Source of the DNA: Escherichia phage vB_EcoM-UFV13
Length of the DNA: 64,000 bases
Sequence record: NC_031103.1
Direction: 5' to 3' (one strand)
This document shows, piece by piece, positions 5,233-63,052 of this stretch. Below the pieces are notes generated by a model. It saw only the letters and a list, made by a program, of their open reading frames with translations. It did not search any database and was not told where the DNA came from. The position numbers and the translations under genes were made by a program. Position 1 is the first letter of the stretch. Each line of letters starts with the position of its first letter.

Positions 5233-5252
5233 GAAAGGGGCCGAAGCCCCTT
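5233..5252 (-). terminator. UUCG hairpin downstream of hoc
   Basis: Minus strand GGGGC-UUCG-GCCCC followed by TTTCTTCATTTTG. Confidence 0.6.
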
Positions 5253-8639: not shown

Positions 8640-8652
8640 GGGCTTCGGCCCT

Positions 8653-25477: not shown

Positions 25478-25491
25478 GGGGCCGAAGCCCC
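25478..25491 (-). other. intercistronic UUCG hairpin preceding a Shine-Dalgarno
   Basis: Minus strand GGGGC-UUCG-GCCCC immediately 5' of GAGGAAAA and the ATG at 25460. Confidence 0.6.
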
Positions 25492-44625: not shown

Positions 44626-44633
44626 TATAAATA
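44626..44633 (+). promoter_or_regulatory. late promoter motif TATAAATA for gene 34
   Basis: Exact motif 35 nt upstream of the gene 34 ATG. Confidence 0.75.
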
Positions 44634-44667: not shown

Positions 44668-47600
44668 ATGGCCGAGATTAAAAGAAAGTTCAGAGCAGAA
44701 GATGGTCTGGACGCAGGTGGTGATAAAATAATCAACGTAGCTTTAGCTGATCGTACCGTAGGAACTGACGGTGTTAACGTTGATTATCTAATTCAAGAAA
44801 ACACAGTTCAACAATATGATCCAACTCGTGGATATTTAAAAGATTTTGTAATCATTTATGATAACCGCTTTTGGGCTGCTATAAATGATATTCCAAAACC
44901 AGCAGGAGCTTTTAATAGCGGACGCTGGAGAGCATTACGTACCGATGCTAACTGGATTACGGTTTCATCTGGTTCATATCAATTAAAATCCGGTGAAGCA
45001 ATTTCGGTTAACACTGCAGCTGGTAATGATATTACATTTACTTTACCATCTACCCCAATTGATGGTGATACTATCGTTCTCCAAGATATTGGAGGAAAAC
45101 CTGGAGTTAACCAAGTTTTAATTGTAGCTCCGGTGCAAAGTATTGTAAACTTCAGAGGTCAACAAGTACGTTCAGTACTAATGACTCATCCAAAGTCACA
45201 GCTAGTTTTAATTTTTAGTAATCGTCTGTGGCAAATGTATGTTGCTGATTATAGTAGAGAAGCTGTAGTTGTAACACCAGCGAATACTTATCAAGCACAG
45301 TCTAACGATTTTATCGTACGTAGATTTACTTCTGCTGCACCAATTAATATTAAACTTCCGAGATTTGCTAATCACGGAGATATTATTAATTTCGTTGATT
45401 TGGATAAATTAAATCCACTTTATCATACAATTGTTACTACATACGATGAAACTACTTCAATACAAGAAGATGGAACTCATTCTATTGAAGGCCGTACATC
45501 GATTGACGGTTTCTTGATGTTTGATGATAATGAGAAATTGTGGAGATTGTTTGACGGAGACAGTAAAGCACGTTTACGTATCATAACGACTAATTCAAAC
45601 ATTCGTCCAAATGAAGAAGTTATGGTATTTGGTGCGAATAACGGAACAACTCAAACAATTGAGCTTCAGCTTCCAACTAATATTTCTGTTGGTGATACTG
45701 TTAAAATTTCCATGAATTACATGAGAAAAGGACAAACAGTTAAAATCAAAGCTGCCGGTGAAGATAAAATTGCTTCTTCAGTTCAATTGCTGCAATTCCC
45801 AAAACGCTCAGAATATCCGCCTGAAGCTGAATGGGTTACAGTTCAAGAATTAGTTTTTAATGGTGAAACTAATTATGTTCCAGTTTTAGAGCTTGCTTAT
45901 ATAGAAGATTCTGATGGAAAATACTGGGTTGTACAGCAAAACGTTCCAACTGTAGAAAGAGTTGATTCTTTAAATGATTCTACTAGAGCAAGATTAGGCG
46001 TAATTGCTTTAGCTACACAAGCTCAAGCTAATGTCGATTTAGAAAATTCTCCACAAAAAGAATTAGCAATTACTCCAGAAACGTTAGCTAATCGTACTGC
46101 TACAGAAACTCGTAGAGGTATCGCAAGAATAGCAACTACTGCTCAAGTGAATCAGAACTCCACATTCTCTTTTGCTGATGATATTATCATCACTCCTAAA
46201 AAGCTGAATGAAAGAACTGCTACAGAAACTCGTAGAGGCGTTGCTGAAATTGCTACGCAACAGGAAACTAATGCAGGTACTGATGACACTACAATCATCA
46301 CTCCTAAAAAGCTTCAAGCTCGTCAAGGTTCTGAATCATTATCTGGTATTGTAACTTTTGTATCTACTGCAGGTGCTACTCCAGCTTCTAGCCGTGAATT
46401 AAATGGTACCAACGTTTATAATAAAAACACTAATAATTTAGTTGTTTCACCTAAAGCTTTGGATCAGTATAAAGCTACGCCTACTCAACAGGGTGCAGTA
46501 ATTTTAGCAGTTGAAAGTGAAGTAATTGCTGGACAAAGTCAGCAAGGATGGGCAAATGCTGTTGTAACTCCAGAAACGTTACACAAAAAGACATCAACTG
46601 ATGGAAGAATTGGTTTAATTGAAATTGCTACGCAAAGTGAAGTTAATACAGGAACTGATTATACTCGTGCAGTCACTCCTAAAACTTTAAATGACCGTAG
46701 AGCAACTGAAAGTTTAAGTGGTATAGCTGAAATTGCTACACAAGTTGAATTCGACGCAGGCGTCGACGATACTCGTATCTCTACACCATTAAAAATTAAA
46801 ACCAGATTTAATAGTACTGATCGTACTTCTGTTGTTGCTCTATCTGGATTAGTTGAATCAGGAACTCTCTGGGACCATTATACCCTTAATATTCTTGAAG
46901 CAAATGAGACACAGCGTGGTACACTTCGTGTAGCTACACAAGTTGAAGCTGCTGCAGGAAAATTAGATAATGTTTTAATAACTCCTAAAAAGCTTTTAGG
47001 TACTAAATCTACCGAATCGCAAGAAGGTGTTATTAAAGTTGCAACTCAGTCTGAAACTGTGGCTGGAACGTCAGCAAATACTGCTGTATCTCCAAAAAAT
47101 TTAAAATGGATTGTGCAGAGTGAACCTACCTGGGCAGCTACTACTGCGATAAGAGGTTTTGTTAAAACTTCATCTGGTTCAATTACATTCGTTGGTAATG
47201 ATACAGTCGGTTCTACCCAAGATTTAGAACTGTATGAGAAAAATAGCTATGCGGTATCACCATATGAATTAAACCGTGTATTAGCAAATTATTTGCCGTT
47301 AAAAGCAAAAGCTGCTGATACAAATTTATTAGATGGTCTAGATTCATCTCAGTTCATTCGTAGGGATATTGCACAGACGGTTAATGGTTCACTAACCTTA
47401 GCCCAACAAACGAATCTGAGTGCCCCTCTTGTATCATCTAGTACTGCTACGTTTGGTGGTTCAGTTTCGGCAAATAGTACATTAACTATTTCTAATACTG
47501 GAACGGCAACTCGTCTGATTTTTGAGAAAGGACCTCAGACTGGAACTAACCCAGCACAGACGATGACTATCAGAGTTTGGGGAAATCAGTTTGGCGGCGG

Positions 47601-48537
47601 ATCAGATACAACGCGTTCTACTGTATTTGAAGTTGGTGATGAAACATCTAATCACTTTTATTCTCAACGTAATAAAGCTGGGAATATAACGTTTAGTATC
47701 AATGGTACTGTGATGCCAATAAATGTTAACGCTTCAGGCACGTTAAATGCGAATGGCGTTGCAACATTTGGTCGTTCAGTTACAGCCAATGGTGAATTCA
47801 TTAGCAAGTCTGCAAATGCTTTCAGAGCAATTAGTGGTGATTACGGATTCTTTATTCGTAATGATGGCGGCAGCACATATTTTATGCTCACTGCATCCGG
47901 TGATCAGACTGGCGGATTTAATGGATTACGTCCTTTGGCTATTAATAATGCATCTGGCCAAGTAACGATTGGTGAAGGCTTAATCATTGCCAAAGGTGCT
48001 ACTATAAATTCAGGTGGTTTGACTGTTAACTCGAGAATTCGTTCTCAGGGCAATAAAACATCTGATTTATATACTCGTGCTCCTACTGCTGATACAGTCG
48101 GATTCTGGTCAATTGATATTAATGATTCAGCCACTTATAACCAGTTCCCGGGTTATTTTAAAATGGTTGAAAAAACTAATGAAGTGACTGGGCTTCCATA
48201 CTTAGAACGTGGCGAAGAAGTTAAATCTCCTGGTACACTGACACAGTTTGGTAACACACTTGATTCGCTTTACCAAGATTGGATTACTTATCCAACAACT
48301 CCAGAAGCGCGTACCACTCGTTGGACCCGCACATGGCAGAAAACCAAAAACTCTTGGTCAAGTTTTGTTCAGGTATTTGACGGAGGTAACCCTCCTCAGC
48401 CGTCTGATATCGGTGCTTTACCATCTGATAATGCTACAATGGGGAATCTTACTATTCGTGATTTCTTACGAATTGGTAATGTTCGCATTATTCCTGACCC
48501 AGTGAATAAAACGGTTAAATTTGAATGGGTTGAATAA
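44668..48537 (+). CDS. 34: long tail fibre proximal subunit gp34
   Basis: 1289 aa, same as T4 gp34; internal fibre repeat motifs. Confidence 0.95.
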   Translation: MAEIKRKFRAEDGLDAGGDKIINVALADRTVGTDGVNVDYLIQENTVQQYDPTRGYLKDFVIIYDNRFWAAINDIPKPAGAFNSGRWRALRTDANWITVSSGSYQLKSGEAISVNTAAGNDITFTLPSTPIDGDTIVLQDIGGKPGVNQVLIVAPVQSIVNFRGQQVRSVLMTHPKSQLVLIFSNRLWQMYVADYSREAVVVTPANTYQAQSNDFIVRRFTSAAPINIKLPRFANHGDIINFVDLDKLNPLYHTIVTTYDETTSIQEDGTHSIEGRTSIDGFLMFDDNEKLWRLFDGDSKARLRIITTNSNIRPNEEVMVFGANNGTTQTIELQLPTNISVGDTVKISMNYMRKGQTVKIKAAGEDKIASSVQLLQFPKRSEYPPEAEWVTVQELVFNGETNYVPVLELAYIEDSDGKYWVVQQNVPTVERVDSLNDSTRARLGVIALATQAQANVDLENSPQKELAITPETLANRTATETRRGIARIATTAQVNQNSTFSFADDIIITPKKLNERTATETRRGVAEIATQQETNAGTDDTTIITPKKLQARQGSESLSGIVTFVSTAGATPASSRELNGTNVYNKNTNNLVVSPKALDQYKATPTQQGAVILAVESEVIAGQSQQGWANAVVTPETLHKKTSTDGRIGLIEIATQSEVNTGTDYTRAVTPKTLNDRRATESLSGIAEIATQVEFDAGVDDTRISTPLKIKTRFNSTDRTSVVALSGLVESGTLWDHYTLNILEANETQRGTLRVATQVEAAAGKLDNVLITPKKLLGTKSTESQEGVIKVATQSETVAGTSANTAVSPKNLKWIVQSEPTWAATTAIRGFVKTSSGSITFVGNDTVGSTQDLELYEKNSYAVSPYELNRVLANYLPLKAKAADTNLLDGLDSSQFIRRDIAQTVNGSLTLAQQTNLSAPLVSSSTATFGGSVSANSTLTISNTGTATRLIFEKGPQTGTNPAQTMTIRVWGNQFGGGSDTTRSTVFEVGDETSNHFYSQRNKAGNITFSINGTVMPINVNASGTLNANGVATFGRSVTANGEFISKSANAFRAISGDYGFFIRNDGGSTYFMLTASGDQTGGFNGLRPLAINNASGQVTIGEGLIIAKGATINSGGLTVNSRIRSQGNKTSDLYTRAPTADTVGFWSIDINDSATYNQFPGYFKMVEKTNEVTGLPYLERGEEVKSPGTLTQFGNTLDSLYQDWITYPTTPEARTTRWTRTWQKTKNSWSSFVQVFDGGNPPQPSDIGALPSDNATMGNLTIRDFLRIGNVRIIPDPVNKTVKFEWVE
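45970..47040 (+). repeat. degenerate in-frame repeat units inside gene 34
   Basis: Protein motif T-E-x-x-G-x-x-x-I-A-T-Q-x-E-x-x-x-G-T-D-x-T-x-x-x-T-P-K-x-L recurs about seven times. Confidence 0.7.
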
Positions 48538-48545
48538 GAGGTATT

Positions 48546-49661
48546 ATGGAAAAATTTATGGCAGAGTTTGGACAAGGATATGTCCAAACGCCATTTTTAT
48601 CGGAAAGCAATTCAGTAAGATATAAAATAAGCATAGCGGGTTCTTGCCAGCTTTCTACAGCAGGACCATACGTTAAATTTCAGGATAATCCTATCGGAAA
48701 TCAAACATTTAGCGCAGGCCTTCATTTAAGAGTTTTTGACCCTTCCACCGGAGCATTAGTTGATAGTAAGTCATATGCTTTTTCTACTTCAAATGATACT
48801 ACATCAGCTGCTTTTGTTAGTTTCATGAATTCTTTGGCGAATAATAGACTTGTTGCTATATTAACTAACGGAAAGGTTAATTTTCCTCCTGAAGTAGTAT
48901 CTTGGTTAAGAACCGCAGGAACGTCTGCTTTTCCATCTGATTCTATATTGTCAAGATTCGACGTATCATATGCTGCTTTTTATACTTCTTCTAAAAGAGC
49001 TATTGCATTAGAGCATGTTAAACTGAGTAATAGAAAAAGCACAGATGATTATCAAACTATTTTAGATGTAGTATTTGACAGTTTAGAAGATGTAGGAGCT
49101 ACCGGGTTTCCAAGAAGAACGTATGAAAGCGTTGAGCAATTCATGTCAGCGGTTGGTGGAACTAATAATGAAATTGCGAGATTGCCAACTTCAGCTGCTA
49201 TAAGTAAACTCTCTGATTATAATTTAATTCCTGGTGATGTTCTTTATCTTAAAGCTCAGTTATATGCTGATGCTGATTTACTTGCGCTTGGAACTACAAA
49301 TATATCTATCCGTTTTTATAATGCATCAAATGGATATATTTCTTCAACACAAGCTGAGTTCACCGGACAAGCTGGGTCTTGGGAATTAAAGGAAGACTAT
49401 GTAGTTGTTCCAGAAAACGCTGTCGGATTTACGATATATGCACAAAGAACTGCACAAGCCGGTCAAGGCGGCATGAGAAATTTAAGCTTTTCTGAAGTGT
49501 CAAGAAATGGAGGTATTTCGAAACCTGCTGAATTTGGCGTCAACGGCATTCGTGTTAATTATATCTGTGAATCTGCTTCACCTCCGGATATAATGGTACT
49601 TCCTACGCAAGCATCGTCTAAAACTGGTAAAGTGTTTGGGCAAGAATTTAGAGAAGTATAA
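48546..49661 (+). CDS. 35: long tail fibre hinge protein gp35
   Basis: 371 aa. Confidence 0.9.
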   Translation: MEKFMAEFGQGYVQTPFLSESNSVRYKISIAGSCQLSTAGPYVKFQDNPIGNQTFSAGLHLRVFDPSTGALVDSKSYAFSTSNDTTSAAFVSFMNSLANNRLVAILTNGKVNFPPEVVSWLRTAGTSAFPSDSILSRFDVSYAAFYTSSKRAIALEHVKLSNRKSTDDYQTILDVVFDSLEDVGATGFPRRTYESVEQFMSAVGGTNNEIARLPTSAAISKLSDYNLIPGDVLYLKAQLYADADLLALGTTNISIRFYNASNGYISSTQAEFTGQAGSWELKEDYVVVPENAVGFTIYAQRTAQAGQGGMRNLSFSEVSRNGGISKPAEFGVNGIRVNYICESASPPDIMVLPTQASSKTGKVFGQEFREV

Positions 49662-49666
49662 ATTGA

Positions 49667-49690
49667 GGGAGCCTTCGGGTTCCCTTTTTC
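49667..49690 (+). terminator. hairpin terminator after gene 35
   Basis: GGGAGCC-UUCG-GGUUCCC followed by TTTTTCTTT. Confidence 0.7.
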
Positions 49691-49692
49691 TT

Positions 49693-49700
49693 TATAAATA
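49693..49700 (+). promoter_or_regulatory. late promoter motif TATAAATA for gene 36
   Basis: Exact motif 24 nt upstream of the gene 36 ATG. Confidence 0.75.
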
Positions 49701-49723
49701 CTATTAAAATAAAGGGGCATACA

Positions 49724-50386
49724 ATGGCTGATTTAAAAGTAGGTTCAACAACTGGAGGCTCTGTCATTTGGCATCAAGGAAATTTTCCATTGAATCCAGC
49801 CGGTGACGATGTACTCTATAAATCATTTAAAATATATTCAGAATACAATAAACCACAAGCTGCTGATAACGATTTCGTTTCTAAAGCTAATGGTGGTACT
49901 TACGCCGCGACTGTTCGATTTAATGGAGGAGTACATGTTCCTACTATAGGTAGTAGTCAACAGTGTGGTGTTTATCCAGGTAACGGTGATGCAGCTACTT
50001 TTGCTATGGCAAATATTGACATCGTTTCGTGGAATGGTATTGGTTTTAAATCATCACAAGGTTCAGCAGACCGAACTGTTGTAATTAATGCACGTAATGG
50101 TGATATTAGTACAAAAGGCGTTGTGACAGCAGTAGGTCAAATAAGAAGTAATGCAGTTACTCCTATAGCAGCGAATGACCTTACTAGAAAGGACTATGTT
50201 GATGGAGCAATAAATACTGTTACAGCAAATGCGAACTCTAGAGTGTTGCGTTCTGGCGATACTATGACAGGGAACTTAACCGCACCAAACTTTTTTTCGC
50301 AGAATCCTGCATCTCAACCTTCACATGTTCCACGATTTGACCAAATCGTAATTAAGGATTCTGTTCAAGATTTCGGCTATTATTAA
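49724..50386 (+). CDS. 36: long tail fibre distal subunit (small) gp36
   Basis: 220 aa; late promoter upstream. Confidence 0.9.
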   Translation: MADLKVGSTTGGSVIWHQGNFPLNPAGDDVLYKSFKIYSEYNKPQAADNDFVSKANGGTYAATVRFNGGVHVPTIGSSQQCGVYPGNGDAATFAMANIDIVSWNGIGFKSSQGSADRTVVINARNGDISTKGVVTAVGQIRSNAVTPIAANDLTRKDYVDGAINTVTANANSRVLRSGDTMTGNLTAPNFFSQNPASQPSHVPRFDQIVIKDSVQDFGYY

Positions 50387-50394
50387 GAGGACTT

Positions 50395-53300
50395 ATGGCT
50401 ACTTTAAAACAGATACAATTTAAAAGAAGCAAAACCGCAGGTGCACGTCCTGCTGCTTCAGTATTAGCCGAAGGTGAATTGGCTATAAACTTAAAAGATA
50501 GAACAATTTTTACTAAAGATGATTCGGGAAATATCATTGATCTAGGTATTGCTAAAGGCGGTCAAATTGATGGAAATGTGACTATCAATGGTCTTTTAAG
50601 ATTAAATGGGGATTATACACAAACTGGTGGAATGACCGTAAATGGACCTATTGGTTCTACTGAAGGCGTATCCGCCTTAGTTTTTAGATCTATGCGAGGG
50701 TCATTTTACGCAAGAGCAACAAATGATACTTCCAATGCCCATCTTTGGTTTGAAAATACAAATGGATCAGAGAGAGGTGTTTTATATTCAAAACCGCAGT
50801 CTGAAAATGAAGGCGTAATTACAATGCGCGTTCGTCAAGGAACCGCAGCAGGGGCTCAAAATTCAGAATTTCATTTCATTTCTACTGATGGCGGTATCTT
50901 CCAGGCACGCAAATTAACTGCTTTAACTTCTATTAGTACACCAACTATTAGTGTTAATTTAATTAATCACGATTCTAAAGCCTTTGGACAATATGATTCA
51001 CAGTCATTAGTTCAGTATGTTTATCCTGGAACAGGTGAAACAAATGGCGTAAACTATCTTCGTAAAGTTCGTGCTAAATCAGGTGGTACAATTTATCATG
51101 AAATTTGTACAGCTCAGACTGGGCTGGCAGATGAAATGTCATGGTGGACTGGTAATACACCGTTATTTAAACTATACGGTATTCGTAACGACGGTAGAAT
51201 GATTATCCGCAATAGCTTGGCCATTGGTACTGTGACTGAAGGATACCCGTCAAGCGATTATGGAAATACCGGGGTAATGGGAGATAGGTATTTAGCTCTT
51301 GGCGATAATGCTTCTGGACTTAAATGGGTTCGTACTGGCGTTATTGACTTAATGGCTAACGGTATTTCTGCGGCGACTATTATTAATAATGGTATTAATA
51401 GTACTAAAAAATTGATGGTCGGTTATAGCCGCGATTCTGGTACTACATGGGATTTTCCAAATAACAACCAAGCAATGTTTACTGCGCGTACCGATATTGA
51501 TGGTAATAATAACGGTGATGGGCAAACTCATATCGGTTATAACAGTAATTCTAAAATGTATCACTATTTCCGTGGTACAGGTCGTATGGCTGTTGGTATG
51601 TCCCAAGGTCTCCTTGTTGAACCAGGAATTTTAGATATTAACACTGGTTCTAACAGAGTTGCTATTAGAGCAGATGGTACATTTGACTCAACCCAACGTA
51701 TTTCTATGCGTACGGGCTTGTTTTTAAGCGGTGATGATAATACTAATGCTTTATTGTTTAAAGCGCCTTCCGGCGTAGATGGTACTAAACCCATTAGCTG
51801 GGCCGCAGGTACTCGTAACGGTCAGAATAAAAATGACATTTCAATTAAAGTATGGGGTAATGCCTTTAACTCAGTTCCGGGTATTAGAGAAACTGTATTT
51901 GAAGTATATGATTCACAAGGTTATTATTTTTATTCACAACGCCAGCGCCCAGAAGGTTCTGAAACTGTTGGGCCTGTTGTAACTCAGTTCAGTGGTCAAG
52001 TTAATGCTAACGGCTCTATTAGCACTGCAGGAAATCTTAAAGTTGATGGTTTGAGTACTTTAAACGGTAATGTTACAATGAAGAACGGTTTGTTTGTTCA
52101 AGGTGGTTCTTCTATTACTGGACAAGTTAAAATCGGCGGAACAGCTGACGCATTAAGAATTTGGAATGCTGAATATGGTGCTATTTTCCGCCGTTCGGAA
52201 AGTAATCTTTATATTATCCCGACTCCTAAAGGTGCCGGAGAATCGGGCGGTATAAGTAATCTTAGACCATTGATAATAGAACTGAACACTGGTACAGTTA
52301 AAATGTCGCATGATGTTCATTTAGGAGATTCTGGATCTGGTACAGGATTATTACAAGTAAGTAATAGTCTTAAAACTATTAAAATGATATGTCCAGTAAC
52401 TATTAATGAACGCAATGCAGCGCTTACTTTAGATTCTCCTTCATCTTCTTCTGCTAATTATTTACAGGGTTCTAAAGCTGGAACTAGATCATGGTATGTT
52501 GGTCTTGGTGGCGCTGGAAATGATTTATCGCTTTATAGCCAATCTTATGGACATGGTCTTGTTATAAGCGATAATTTCGTGTCAATCAGTAAACCTCTTA
52601 AAGTCGGAAATGCCCAATTAGGAACTGACGGTAATATTACCAATGGTTCAGGAAACTTTGCCAACTTAAACACCACGTTAAATCGTAAAGTTAATTCTGG
52701 ATTTATTACTTATGGAGCAACTGCTGGCTGGTATAAGTTTGCAACAGTAACAATGCCACAATCCACTTCTACGGTCTTCTTTAAAATAGCCGGTGGTTCT
52801 GGATTTAATAGCGGATTATTCACACAATGCAATATTGCTGAAATTGTTTTACGTACTAGTAATGAAAGACCTGCTGACTTAAATGCTGTATTATATACAA
52901 GAACATCTGGACTGTATAGCGCAGCATTTAGAAATATTGCAGTTAACAATGTCTCTGGAAATACATATGACATTTATGTTTATGCCGGAACATATTGTAA
53001 TCAACTAGCGTGTGAATGGTCATGTACCGAAAATGCTACTGTTAGCGTTATTGGTATTAACTCATCTACACAATCACCTGTAGATGCTCTTCCAGATACA
53101 GCAGTTAACGGTCAAGTTGCTAATGTTCTTAATAACTTGGTTGATCGTGGTAAAGCAAAACGTTATGTAGCAGAGTCGGAAATTGCTATTAATAACCAAA
53201 CTGGTATTCGTATTACGAGTAATTCTGATAGATCAGGTTCTAATTCCGTTTTATTTCGAAATGACGGTGGAAACTTCTATATTTTACTGACCGACAAAAA

Positions 53301-54255
53301 CTCTTCGGACGGCGATAATAAAGCGACTGAAGGCGATTGGAATGGAAAACGACCGTTTTCCATTGATATGACTGCTGGTACTGTTCGTCTTGGCGAAAAT
53401 ACTTCTTTTGATAAAGATATTACTATTAATGGAAACATTAATTCACGAGTTAAAGCTGCCGGACAATGGAGTGTTAGCTTTTCTGCTATTTCAGATGTGA
53501 CTCGCGACAATTCTGCATTCTTAGCGAATACGGGTGGCATTTCCAAGACAAGTCAAGCTTATTACCCGCTATTTTCTGGATACAGTTTTTTAACTGACGC
53601 GGGTTATCGACAATCGTTTGAATTTGGATGGTTAGGTGTTTCTGGTACTTGGCGCCAAGGCATTATTCGCATGCGTGGTGACAACGCATCGGGGCAACAG
53701 GCTCGTTGGACTTTTGATATGGATGGAACATTTTATGCTCCTATACTATCATGCGGATCTGCGAGAGCATTCGGTGTCAATACATCAAATGGTCTCGGTG
53801 GAAACAGTATAACATTTGGTGATAGCGATACCGGTATTAAGCAAAATGGTGATGGATTATTAGACATATATGCGAACAACGCACAAGTATTCCGTTTCCA
53901 AAACGGCGATTTGTACTCATACAAAAATATAAATGCTCCAAACGTTTATATTCGTTCTGATATTCGTTTAAAATCCAACTTCAAACCTATCGAAAATGCA
54001 CTTGATAAAGTTGAAAAACTTAACGGTGTCATTTACGATAAAGCTGAATACATCGGTGGAGAGGCAATTGAAACTGAAGCGGGTATTGTGGCTCAAACGT
54101 TGCAAGACGTTTTACCAGAAGCTGTCCGTGAAACAGAAGACAGTAAGGGTAATAAAATACTCACTGTTTCTTCTCAAGCCCAGATTGCTCTTCTAGTTGA
54201 AGCTGTGAAAACACTTTCTTCTCGTGTAAAAGAACTTGAATCTAAACTTATGTAA
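50395..54255 (+). CDS. 37: long tail fibre distal subunit gp37, T2-type with C-terminal chaperone-like domain
   Basis: 1286 aa; C-terminal about 110 aa (…NGVIYDKAEYIGGEAIETEAGIVAQTLQDVLPEAV…LESKLM) resembles a cleaved intramolecular chaperone domain. Confidence 0.9.
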   Translation: MATLKQIQFKRSKTAGARPAASVLAEGELAINLKDRTIFTKDDSGNIIDLGIAKGGQIDGNVTINGLLRLNGDYTQTGGMTVNGPIGSTEGVSALVFRSMRGSFYARATNDTSNAHLWFENTNGSERGVLYSKPQSENEGVITMRVRQGTAAGAQNSEFHFISTDGGIFQARKLTALTSISTPTISVNLINHDSKAFGQYDSQSLVQYVYPGTGETNGVNYLRKVRAKSGGTIYHEICTAQTGLADEMSWWTGNTPLFKLYGIRNDGRMIIRNSLAIGTVTEGYPSSDYGNTGVMGDRYLALGDNASGLKWVRTGVIDLMANGISAATIINNGINSTKKLMVGYSRDSGTTWDFPNNNQAMFTARTDIDGNNNGDGQTHIGYNSNSKMYHYFRGTGRMAVGMSQGLLVEPGILDINTGSNRVAIRADGTFDSTQRISMRTGLFLSGDDNTNALLFKAPSGVDGTKPISWAAGTRNGQNKNDISIKVWGNAFNSVPGIRETVFEVYDSQGYYFYSQRQRPEGSETVGPVVTQFSGQVNANGSISTAGNLKVDGLSTLNGNVTMKNGLFVQGGSSITGQVKIGGTADALRIWNAEYGAIFRRSESNLYIIPTPKGAGESGGISNLRPLIIELNTGTVKMSHDVHLGDSGSGTGLLQVSNSLKTIKMICPVTINERNAALTLDSPSSSSANYLQGSKAGTRSWYVGLGGAGNDLSLYSQSYGHGLVISDNFVSISKPLKVGNAQLGTDGNITNGSGNFANLNTTLNRKVNSGFITYGATAGWYKFATVTMPQSTSTVFFKIAGGSGFNSGLFTQCNIAEIVLRTSNERPADLNAVLYTRTSGLYSAAFRNIAVNNVSGNTYDIYVYAGTYCNQLACEWSCTENATVSVIGINSSTQSPVDALPDTAVNGQVANVLNNLVDRGKAKRYVAESEIAINNQTGIRITSNSDRSGSNSVLFRNDGGNFYILLTDKNSSDGDNKATEGDWNGKRPFSIDMTAGTVRLGENTSFDKDITINGNINSRVKAAGQWSVSFSAISDVTRDNSAFLANTGGISKTSQAYYPLFSGYSFLTDAGYRQSFEFGWLGVSGTWRQGIIRMRGDNASGQQARWTFDMDGTFYAPILSCGSARAFGVNTSNGLGGNSITFGDSDTGIKQNGDGLLDIYANNAQVFRFQNGDLYSYKNINAPNVYIRSDIRLKSNFKPIENALDKVEKLNGVIYDKAEYIGGEAIETEAGIVAQTLQDVLPEAVRETEDSKGNKILTVSSQAQIALLVEAVKTLSSRVKELESKLM

Positions 54256-54257
54256 AA

Positions 54258-54273
54258 GAGGGCTTCGGCCCTC
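54258..54273 (+). other. UUCG hairpin between genes 37 and 38, preceding the gene 38 Shine-Dalgarno
   Basis: GAGGGC-UUCG-GCCCUC then UAAGGAUUUUUA-AUG. Confidence 0.6.
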
Positions 54274-54285
54274 TAAGGATTTTTA

Positions 54286-55077
54286 ATGGCAATTGTAGGT
54301 GTTCCTGGCTGGATTGGCGAATCTGCCGTGAATGAAACTGGACAACGTTGGATGGATGCTGCGATGAAAGCTGTTCGTGTTTCAGTTCCCGGTTGGATGA
54401 GTTCAATGGCTGGGCAATCTAAAGAAGTATATTATAGTGTTGGTGCTAGTAATTCTTATAATAAAGACACACTAATAAATTGGATAAAAGCTCAAGGAAG
54501 TACTCCTGTTGTTATTACTATTACAGGAAATATTGTTTCTCAATCTACTGGTGTTCCATGCTTAGATTTTCCTAGCTCATTAACTAATGCGTATGTTACC
54601 TTAAATATTAATAGCGGGGTTCATGTATTAGGTCGGGGAGGAAATGGCGGAAGTAACTCTGCTGGTGGAGCAGGAGGAACTGCAATAAATAACGGAATTG
54701 GAACTCGTTTAAGAATAAACAATAATGGTATTATTGGTGGCGGTGGCGGTGGCGGCGCAGGTGCTAGATACAATCCTTTCCCTCAAATGGATATGAAATT
54801 TGGCGGCGGAGGAGGTCGTCCATTTGGTGCTGCCGGTGCAGCCGGTGGCGGCGCAGCGGCTGCATCTGCCGGTACAATTTCTGCTCCTGGTAAAGGCACT
54901 GTTTCTGGGGTTCACCATGGAGGAGATGGTGGAGATTTGGGAGCTGCTGGCAAATCTTCATATATTCAAGGTGGTACTGGAGGAACTGTTCACTCGGGTG
55001 GTGCTGCGGGTAAAGCTGTTACTGGTAATGCTCCAACTTGGACTAAAGTTGGTACAATATATGGTGCAAGAGTATAA
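54286..55077 (+). CDS. 38: tail fibre tip adhesin gp38, T2-type with glycine-rich motifs
   Basis: 263 aa with several poly-Gly motifs (GGGGGGAGA, GGGGGRPFGAAGAAGGGAAAA); differs from the 183-aa T4 gp38. Confidence 0.88.
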   Translation: MAIVGVPGWIGESAVNETGQRWMDAAMKAVRVSVPGWMSSMAGQSKEVYYSVGASNSYNKDTLINWIKAQGSTPVVITITGNIVSQSTGVPCLDFPSSLTNAYVTLNINSGVHVLGRGGNGGSNSAGGAGGTAINNGIGTRLRINNNGIIGGGGGGGAGARYNPFPQMDMKFGGGGGRPFGAAGAAGGGAAAASAGTISAPGKGTVSGVHHGGDGGDLGAAGKSSYIQGGTGGTVHSGGAAGKAVTGNAPTWTKVGTIYGARV

Positions 55078-55108
55078 TTTTGAATAAATATCCTTAAAAG
55101 GAGGGTCT

Positions 55109-55765
55109 ATGGCAGCACCTAGAATATCATTTTCGCCCTCTGATATTCTGTTGGGTGTTCTAGATCGCTTGTTCAAAGATAACGCTACCGGGAAAGTTCT
55201 TGCTTCCCGGGTAGCTGTCGTAATTCTTTTGTTTATAATGGCGATTGTTTGGTATAGGGGAGATAGTTTCTTTGAGTACTATAAGCAATCAAAGTATGAA
55301 ACATACAGTGAAATTATTGAAAAGGAAAGAAATGCACGCTTTGAATCTGTCGCCCTGGAACAACTCCAGATAGTTCATATATCATCTGAGGCAGACTTTA
55401 GTGCGGTGTATTCTTTCCGCCCTAAAAACTTAAACTATTTTGTTGATATTATAGCATATGAAGGAAAATTACCTTCAACAATAAGTGAAAAATCACTTGG
55501 AGGATATCCTGTTGATAAAACTATGGATGAATATACAGTTCATTTAAATGGACGTCATTATTATTCCAACTCAAAATTTGCTTTTTTACCAACTAAAAAG
55601 CCTACTCCCGAAATAAACTACATGTACAGTTGTCCATATTTTAATTTGGATAATATCTATGCTGGAACGATAACCATGTACTGGTATAGAAATGATCATA
55701 TAAGTAATGACCGCCTTGAATCAATATGTGCTCAGGCGGCCAGAATATTAGGAAGGGCTAAATAA
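55109..55765 (+). CDS. t: holin T
   Basis: 218 aa, recognised T4 holin with single N-terminal TMD. Confidence 0.95.
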   Translation: MAAPRISFSPSDILLGVLDRLFKDNATGKVLASRVAVVILLFIMAIVWYRGDSFFEYYKQSKYETYSEIIEKERNARFESVALEQLQIVHISSEADFSAVYSFRPKNLNYFVDIIAYEGKLPSTISEKSLGGYPVDKTMDEYTVHLNGRHYYSNSKFAFLPTKKPTPEINYMYSCPYFNLDNIYAGTITMYWYRNDHISNDRLESICAQAARILGRAK

Positions 55766-56038
55766 TTATTTGTTCGTATACATCTCTAGATATCGATATA
55801 CACCCTCAAAACCCTCGTTGAATTCGTCGATGAGGGTTTTCTTATCTTCCTGGGTTAATTCAGAAACAATTTTACGGAATGAATTCTGATTTAATTTTCT
55901 ACCTTCATGCGTTACTCCAATCTCATTCAGAAATGCAATAAAATTAGCACGATTCTCAACAATATCTTCTCTGGAAAATTTAATCAAAATAGACGCAACA
56001 GTAATAATTTCACGAATTGTATCAATGTTTTTATTCAT
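55766..56038 (-). CDS. asiA: anti-sigma70 protein AsiA
   Basis: 90 aa, recognised AsiA sequence. Confidence 0.95.
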   Translation of the reverse strand: MNKNIDTIREIITVASILIKFSREDIVENRANFIAFLNEIGVTHEGRKLNQNSFRKIVSELTQEDKKTLIDEFNEGFEGVYRYLEMYTNK

Positions 56039-56050
56039 TAACTATACCAC

Positions 56051-56203
56051 TCAATTAGTTGACTTTATTATAATATCATCAGACGCTTGATTTGTAAACT
56101 GGTCTGTGTTATTTTCTTCAAAAATTTTTTCTACGAATTCCTTGAACGACTTACGTTCCTGAGCTACATTATGCTCGATTACTTTTTCAAGATTATGACT
56201 CAT
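56051..56203 (-). CDS. small acidic protein (not in ORF track)
   Basis: Hand-translated 50 aa ORF MSHNLEKVIEHNVAQERKSFKEF...; ATG overlaps arn stop (ATGA); 3' end contains the asiA promoter-like sequence. Confidence 0.5.
   Translation of the reverse strand: MSHNLEKVIEHNVAQERKSFKEFVEKIFEENNTDQFTNQASDDIIIKSTN
56064..56099 (-). promoter_or_regulatory. early promoter-like sequence for asiA
   Basis: Minus strand GTTTAC, 17 nt, ATATTATAAT. Confidence 0.6.
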
Positions 56204-62810: not shown

Positions 62811-62826
62811 AGGGCCGAAGCCCTTA
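62811..62826 (-). terminator. UUCG hairpin with downstream U-run
   Basis: Minus strand AAGGGC-UUCG-GCCCUU followed by TTGTTTT. Confidence 0.55.
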
Positions 62827-63036: not shown

Positions 63037-63052
63037 AAGGGCCGAAGCCCTT
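63037..63052 (-). other. UUCG hairpin overlapping the rIIB stop, preceding the next Shine-Dalgarno
   Basis: Identical AAGGGC-UUCG-GCCCUU to the hairpin at 62811..62826. Confidence 0.55.

Follow-up and report, generated by a model that had tools for sequence, protein, structure and literature searches.

Does Escherichia phage vB_EcoM-UFV13 end its long tail fibers in the manner of T4, in which gp37 holds the receptor-binding tip and gp38 is an assembly chaperone, or in the manner of T2, in which gp38 is itself the adhesin at the tip, and which receptor would such an adhesin recognize? We examined genes 37 and 38 of this phage (UFV13 below) in a stretch of 64,000 nucleotides (nt) of sequence record NC_031103.1, referred to here as the window, to which all positions refer. 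The locus is almost certainly the distal long-tail-fiber module, gp37 plus gp38, of a T2-type Tequatrovirus. Both open reading frames (ORFs) have precisely the coordinates and lengths given in an earlier note made from the letters of the sequence:

50395 to 54255, plus strand: gene 37, ATG start, 1,286 residues, long tail fiber distal subunit (ORF; full-length match to PHROG 1699, E=0; exact-sequence look-up)
54286 to 55077, plus strand: gene 38, ATG start, 263 residues, T2-type tail-fiber tip adhesin (Pfam GP38 and Gp38_N; PHROG 2056, 'tail fiber protein; host specificity', E 2.9e-101; 6F45_D, E 1.5e-47)

An exact-sequence look-up in RefSeq returned both proteins at 100% identity from vB_EcoM-UFV13 itself, gp37 as YP_009290511.1 ('long tail fiber protein distal subunit') and gp38 as YP_009290512.1 ('tail fiber protein; host specificity'). 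The two-gene arrangement is well known, and both genes are already annotated in this phage. Judged by ORF order and Pfam, gene 38 sits directly 3' of gene 37 and 5' of the holin gene t, and the canonical T-even order (gp34, gp35, gp36, gp37, gp38, holin t) is kept among ORFs with Pfam or PHROG matches.

gp38 is a tip adhesin of the T2/S16 type; its presence in the virion and its binding to a receptor would be expected from what is established for its relatives. Pfam GP38 (PF05268) covers residues 47 to 263 (E 1.2e-68, 231.6 bits, profile positions 1 to 218 of 218) and Gp38_N (PF21721) residues 1 to 42 (E 7.3e-18, 64.7 bits), against a cutoff of 25 bits for each. The alignment to 6F45_D, the gp38 chain of the S16 crystal structure, runs from residue 8 to residue 261 and thus spans the protein, albeit at a much lower identity and with unrelated loops in the variable segments; 9V85, the structure of a GFP-gp38 fusion, is matched as well (E 1.3e-30). 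Within the 6F45_D alignment Trp9, Trp22, and Trp37 fall on three tryptophans of S16 gp38, through which a single monomer is plugged into the trimer of gp37 at three equivalent pockets (PMC6851490), a study that also describes the (gp37)3-gp38 architecture and the polyglycine II sandwich of S16. Two parts of gp38 can be told apart:

54286 to 54411, plus strand: gp38 N-terminal attachment domain, residues 1 to 42, with Trp9, Trp22, and Trp37 (Pfam Gp38_N; S16 alignment)
54631 to 55005, plus strand: gp38 specificity domain, residues 116 to 240 (alignment with T2, T6, FJ1, and Sf22; glycine runs; column-conservation map)

Glycine accounts for 23% of gp38 overall, for 33% of residues 110 to 263 versus 9% of residues 1 to 109, and occurs in runs of seven (151 to 157) and five (173 to 177) besides several GG and GGG. 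The earlier note had described poly-glycine motifs lying between short variable segments and had proposed an alignment with T2 and T6 to map them. In the alignment with T2, T6, FJ1, and Sf22 this layout is borne out: a set of five glycine-rich motifs (GRMs), all of them conserved, namely GRGGNGG (116 to 122), G7 (151 to 157), GGGGGRPFG (173 to 181), GGDGG (212 to 216), and GGAAG (238 to 242), and four hypervariable segments (HVSs), HVS1 at 122 to 126, HVS2 at 159 to 172, HVS3 at 183 to 213, and HVS4 at 221 to 238. The same layout was published by Trojet et al. and Lutz et al. Our set for the comparison with classical adhesins comprised T2, T6, S16, and six modern phages. With T2 (AP018813), UFV13 shares the gene order, a Peptidase_S74 domain at the C terminus of gp37, and the pair GP38 and Gp38_N; the N-terminal domain and the GRMs of gp38 are conserved, whereas gp38 as a whole is just 62% identical (55% for T6) and all four HVSs differ.

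The glycine-rich part of gp38 also stands out in base composition. The G+C content (GC) rises to 0.47-0.48 at positions 54500 to 55250, which correspond to the glycine/alanine-rich domain, so that of the two shifts that the earlier note had thought worth looking for at the module, in GC and in codon usage, the former is present and the latter is absent. GC at the first, second, and third codon positions (GC1, GC2, and GC3) of this domain is 0.63, 0.69, and 0.20, the GC3 being the same as in neighboring genes, and once glycine and alanine codons are removed the GC is 0.28 versus 0.30 for gp37. We therefore rejected foreign DNA as the source of the rise, which is due to the glycine and alanine codons; neither GC3 nor the GC freed of these codons carries a codon-usage signal of foreign origin in the gp38 region.

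The C terminus of gp37 carries the second half of the argument. Peptidase_S74 (PF13884, 'chaperone of endosialidase') matches residues 1188 to 1245 of 1,286 over its whole profile (positions 1 to 58 of 58; E 3.6e-15, 56.4 bits, cutoff 22 bits), next to further Pfam matches of gp37 to gp37_trimer and Gp34_trimer. The domain starts with SDIRLK (residues 1188 to 1193), directly preceded by NVYIR, so that Ser1188 and Lys1193 form an S-x4-K dyad:

53956 to 54252, plus strand: C-terminal intramolecular chaperone domain (Peptidase_S74), gp37 residues 1188 to 1286 (PF13884, motif position, alignments)

Searches of the Protein Data Bank with the last 151 residues of gp37 and with a profile built from four gp37 C termini matched the S16 gp37 chain 6F45_A (E 1e-12 and 3e-14), the ICA domain of MYRF, 7DC3 (E 1e-3 and 5e-6), and the phage fiber 8JOV (E 5.5e-5). 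In these alignments SDIRLK faces the S16 sequence SDRRIK, the 8JOV sequence SDERLK, and, in the MYRF chain as deposited, ADLRAK. The block VYIRSDxRLK is unchanged in four divergent gp37 proteins that are otherwise only 39% identical, and the last 136 residues are 96 to 100% identical to those of T2 gp37. T2 and T6 gp37 both contain Peptidase_S74, and proteolytic processing of both has been reported. In S16 the intramolecular chaperone (IMC), the last 113 residues, cleaves itself off at DLNVS^SDRRIKK, which lays bare the surface on which gp38 docks, and the corresponding site of fPS phages reads DVYIR^SDGRLKI (PMC7917993). From the S16 and fPS sites and the 96 to 100% identity of its domain to that of T2, gp37 of UFV13 is predicted to cleave itself between Arg1187 and Ser1188, releasing a fragment of 99 residues (1188 to 1286). 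The earlier note had seen a self-cleaving, chaperone-like domain in the last 110 residues or so; the domain stands, with the catalytic serine and lysine retained, while its predicted length is 99 residues. Relative to S16, then, the gp37 tip and an IMC with the S^SDRRIK-type site are shared, as are the three docking tryptophans and the GRMs of gp38, whereas the IMC is 99 rather than 113 residues long and the residue before the scissile bond is Arg rather than Ser. Other Peptidase_S74 chaperones, such as the endosialidase CIMCD and the MYRF ICA (7DC3), share with UFV13 the match to PF13884 and a domain that opens with the Ser-x4-Lys dyad, but the passenger upstream is here a T-even fiber tip and not an endosialidase or a transcription factor, and MYRF is only weakly similar when the sequences are compared directly (E 1e-3 to 5e-6).

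Taken together with the studied relatives, these features suggest how the module may work. gp37 would fold as a trimeric, beta-helical fiber with the aid of its own C-terminal chaperone (residues 1188 to 1286). Following trimerization, the Ser1188/Lys1193 dyad would cut between Arg1187 and Ser1188, and departure of the 99-residue chaperone would expose a gp37 tip that ends in NVYIR. One gp38 monomer would then cap the gp37 trimer by inserting W9, W22, and W37 into three equivalent pockets, and its C-terminal variable loops, displayed on a scaffold of polyglycine helices, would bind an outer membrane protein of E. coli, most probably Tsx.

Two other views of the architecture deserve consideration. 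In a T4-type arrangement, gp37 would hold the receptor-binding tip and gp38 would be an assembly chaperone absent from the virion, as might be concluded from several public records in which the homologue is called 'tail assembly protein' or 'distal long tail fiber assembly catalyst.' We give this view next to no credence. No BLASTP alignment of gp38 to the 183-residue T4 gp38 was obtained even at E<=10, in agreement with the earlier note, which had assigned gp38 to the T2-type adhesins and set it apart from the T4 chaperone; T4 gp38, an unrelated chaperone, matches no Pfam family, in contrast to the GP38 and Gp38_N matches of UFV13 gp38. Likewise, T4 gp37 lacks Peptidase_S74 and has Collar and Phage_fiber domains as its receptor-binding tip, whereas the reverse holds for UFV13 gp37, and the two gp37 proteins, 50 to 96% identical over residues 1 to 300 and encoded at the same position of the locus, show 0% identity or no alignment beyond about residue 1050. 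Neither of the two outcomes by which the earlier note would have been refuted, a full-length alignment of gp38 to T4 gp38 and a gp37 C terminus devoid of chaperone homology, was seen. The 'assembly' names given to T2-type adhesins in many GenBank records are wrong and represent a legacy transfer from the unrelated T4 gp38. It is also conceivable that the Peptidase_S74 domain is a remnant unable to cleave and is kept on the mature fiber, given that cleavage of UFV13 gp37 is deduced by homology and that the domain is shorter than that of S16. We consider this very improbable, if less so than the T4-type arrangement: the catalytic serine and lysine, like all of the VYIRSDxRLK block, do not vary among divergent gp37 proteins, the C terminus is nearly the same as that of T2 gp37, for which processing was reported, and docking of gp38 needs an exposed gp37 tip.

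We thus return to the T2-type module, in which gp38 is the adhesin, and to its receptor. The nucleoside channel Tsx is the likely receptor of UFV13 gp38. Its sequence is 97.7% identical to gp38 of Bas43 (TadeuszReichstein; 6 residues differ) and 97.0% identical to that of AV115 (8 residues differ), all three proteins being 263 residues long. Bas43 depends on Tsx as judged by its efficiency of plating on mutants of the receptors (PMC8594841 supplement), and RB-TnSeq gave the same answer (10.64898/2026.04.02.716166 supplement); for AV114 and AV115, too, the use of Tsx has been demonstrated by experiment (PMC10844046). Furthermore, the PFPQM motif in HVS2 is common to UFV13 gp38 and T6, the archetypal Tsx phage. 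Both this motif and the 97 to 98% identity to experimentally Tsx-dependent adhesins underlie our assignment. The closest relatives are the gp38 proteins of Shfl2 and RB18, each 99.2% identical with 2 substitutions. T2, in contrast, is reported to use FadL, and S16 has a Salmonella host and a different receptor, OmpC.

No result contradicts the architecture. Family membership, the catalytic and docking residues, the GRM/HVS layout, and the mosaic described below can be read from the sequences themselves. Several points limit the rest of this picture. Both the autocleavage of gp37 and the 3:1 docking of gp38 are taken wholly from homology, and so is the polyglycine II sandwich fold of gp38 on a beta-helix, for which 6F45_D is the sole model, since the single-sequence AlphaFold2 prediction (pLDDT 34, pTM 0.23) was too poor for use. 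With respect to the receptor, UFV13, Shfl2, and RB18 are set apart from the Tsx-typed adhesins by N163H and K171I in HVS2 and by H211Y and D214N in HVS3/GRM4, a subvariant (N163/K171/H211/D214) that is also found in REP4 gp38; further differences are A261S and, in Bas43 only, Q228K. One change in HVS3, Q206L, was reported to switch RB51 from OmpF to OmpW, the Type 1 class of OmpA-binding gp38 was reported to be phylogenetically close to the Tsx class, and we found no receptor data in the literature for UFV13, Shfl2, or RB18 themselves. On account of the four HVS2/HVS3 differences and this lack of direct data, we hold the assignment to Tsx to be likely rather than certain. The same architecture might then serve a subvariant that recognizes a non-Tsx receptor, for instance OmpA, or Tsx together with a second receptor. 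Besides the four substitutions within or beside HVS2 and HVS3 and the switch in porin specificity that a single HVS substitution can cause, this would fit the report that phage PST, a few HVS2/3 residues apart from T6, gained recognition of OmpA, and the Shfl2 record, which describes its own gp38 as 'similar to Bacteriophage K3,' an OmpA phage. Yet the three phages with near-identical gp38 depend on Tsx, the remaining HVS residues are the same as in the Tsx-typed adhesins, PFPQM is shared with T6, and in published surveys closely related gp38 proteins go with the same receptor, so that this alternative appears unlikely, though far from negligible. That N163, K171, H211, and D214 change or broaden specificity, for example toward OmpA or toward an allele of Tsx in Shigella or E. 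coli that others cannot use, is to us a shade less likely still; if true, such a change, combined with a gp37 shaft unseen in other sequenced phages, would give UFV13 a distinct host range.

Near-identical gp38 cassettes (97 to 98% at the protein level) occur in two genera, Bas43 being a Tequatrovirus and AV115, like AV114, a Mosigvirus, which points to transfer of the adhesin between genera.

Tsx thus being the likely receptor of the adhesin, the question remains where the fiber that carries it comes from. The earlier note had singled out this module as the region most likely to be mosaic, and comparisons by blastn and in windows of 50 residues and 100 nt indeed divide gp37 into three blocks:

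50395 to 52223, plus strand: gp37 block 1, FJ1-like shaft, residues 1 to 610 (blastn, 50-residue windows, 100-nt windows)
52224 to 52620, plus strand: gp37 block 2, Phaginator/Sf22/RB18-like, residues about 611 to 742 (blastn, 50-residue windows, 100-nt windows)
52621 to 53955, plus strand: gp37 block 3, Shfl2-like distal shaft and tip, residues about 743 to 1187 (blastn; windows; 6F45_A alignment; PMC7917993)

Block 1 is 96 to 100% identical to FJ1 at the protein level in most windows, with 84% at residues 451 to 500, and belongs to a blastn match with FJ1 at 48895 to 52223 (94.7% nt identity). Across block 2, FJ1 and Shfl2 drop to 14 to 55% identity; Phaginator and Sf22 are 98 to 100% and RB18 86 to 98% identical there, and at the nt level the identity to such Phaginator/Sf22/RB18-like sequence is 96 to 100%. 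From about residue 743 through the end of gp38, identity to Shfl2 is 96 to 100%, in line with a blastn match at 52621 to 56100 (97.5% nt identity). Block 3 ends in the NVYIR strand, a predicted part of the docking surface for gp38. The locus was thus assembled by recombination among related phages: the shaft is FJ1-like, the middle part Phaginator/Sf22/RB18-like, and the tip, together with the adhesin, Shfl2-like. This mosaicism is of the ordinary T-even kind, the textbook recombination of tail fibers, and almost every piece in UFV13 is near-identical to that of another phage.

Comparison with single phages leads to the same division. Shfl2 and RB18 share a genome backbone with UFV13 at about 96 to 97% identity in addition to their gp38, and many Tequatrovirus genomes, including those of Shfl2, CM8, and PP01, are about 96% identical at the nt level to the rest of the window. 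Shfl2 gp37 is 96 to 100% identical over residues 751 to 1286 and 92 to 100% over residues 1 to 50 and 101 to 250, but falls to 58% at residues 51 to 100 and to 14 to 76% at residues 251 to 750, and the divergent stretches match FJ1 and Phaginator/Sf22/RB18 instead. The T2 gp37 shaft is mostly 18 to 60% identical, and T2 gp37 is longer (1,341 versus 1,286 residues). No gp37 more than about 80% identical over the full length was found among 50,697 phage records, and when about 15 billion public proteins are clustered at 90% identity, UFV13 gp37 forms a cluster by itself, although each of its three blocks is 96 to 100% identical to one in another sequenced phage.

Two observations on the shaft may be added. 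Pfam gp37_trimer (residues 677 to 749) overlaps block 2, as does a stretch at residues 677 to 796 (52423 to 52782) that matches the structures 4A0T/4A0U of the T7 tail fiber protein gp17 (E about 4e-6). Positions 51695 to 51894, considered as a novel stretch of gp37 at 80 to 89% identity to seven comparators, were rejected as such because BYEP01, AV122, and N2 match them at 92 to 93%.

The surroundings of the module comprise the other fiber genes and the holin gene, together with putative signals for transcription and translation:

44668 to 48537: gp34 (Pfam/PHROG match)
48546 to 49661: gp35 (Pfam/PHROG match)
49724 to 50386: gp36 (Pfam/PHROG match)
55109 to 55765: holin t (Pfam/PHROG match)
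49693 to 49700, plus strand: TATAAATA motif, 24 nt upstream of the gp36 ATG (motif scan)
54257 to 54274, plus strand: C(UUCG)G tetraloop hairpin in the 30-nt spacer between gp37 and gp38 (sequence; fold -13.4 kcal/mol; terminator-like scan)

The motif TATAAATA, the late-promoter consensus of T4, has a second copy at 44626, 35 nt upstream of gp34. Its 13 occurrences in the window are no significant excess over the 8.6 expected, so that a promoter role is proposed entirely from established T4 knowledge; on this basis, the copy at 49693 is a probable candidate start of a late transcript of genes 36, 37, and 38. After the spacer hairpin comes AAGGA, which lies 8 nt ahead of the ATG of gp38 and is probably its ribosome-binding site.

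Six copies of the 12-mer GGGCTTCGGCCC, a hairpin with a C(UUCG)G tetraloop, lie in the window, where none is expected from shuffles:

5238 to 5249, minus strand: GGGCTTCGGCCC
8640 to 8651, plus strand: GGGCTTCGGCCC
25479 to 25490, minus strand: GGGCTTCGGCCC
54260 to 54271, plus strand: GGGCTTCGGCCC
62812 to 62823, minus strand: GGGCTTCGGCCC
63039 to 63050, minus strand: GGGCTTCGGCCC

The copies inspected, including the one in the gp37-gp38 spacer, are intergenic, and a related hairpin lies between gp35 and gp36 (49665 to 49686, plus strand), just ahead of a TATAAATA motif. Presumably, they correspond to the intergenic RNA hairpins of great stability that have been known from T4 for a long time. 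Residues 58 to 127 of the hinge protein gp35 match PF15711, ILEI (35 bits versus a cutoff of 27), an interleukin-like EMT inducer or PANDER-like domain; one would not expect this family name on the hinge protein of a phage fiber.

In conclusion, the findings at this locus are already known and explained, and they open no new question. The gp37-gp38 module determines which hosts the phage can infect, and UFV13 has been under consideration for the biological control of E. coli in mastitis. If Tsx is indeed the receptor, as seems probable, loss of tsx is the predicted route to resistance, and knowledge of this receptor would be useful in the design of phage cocktails.

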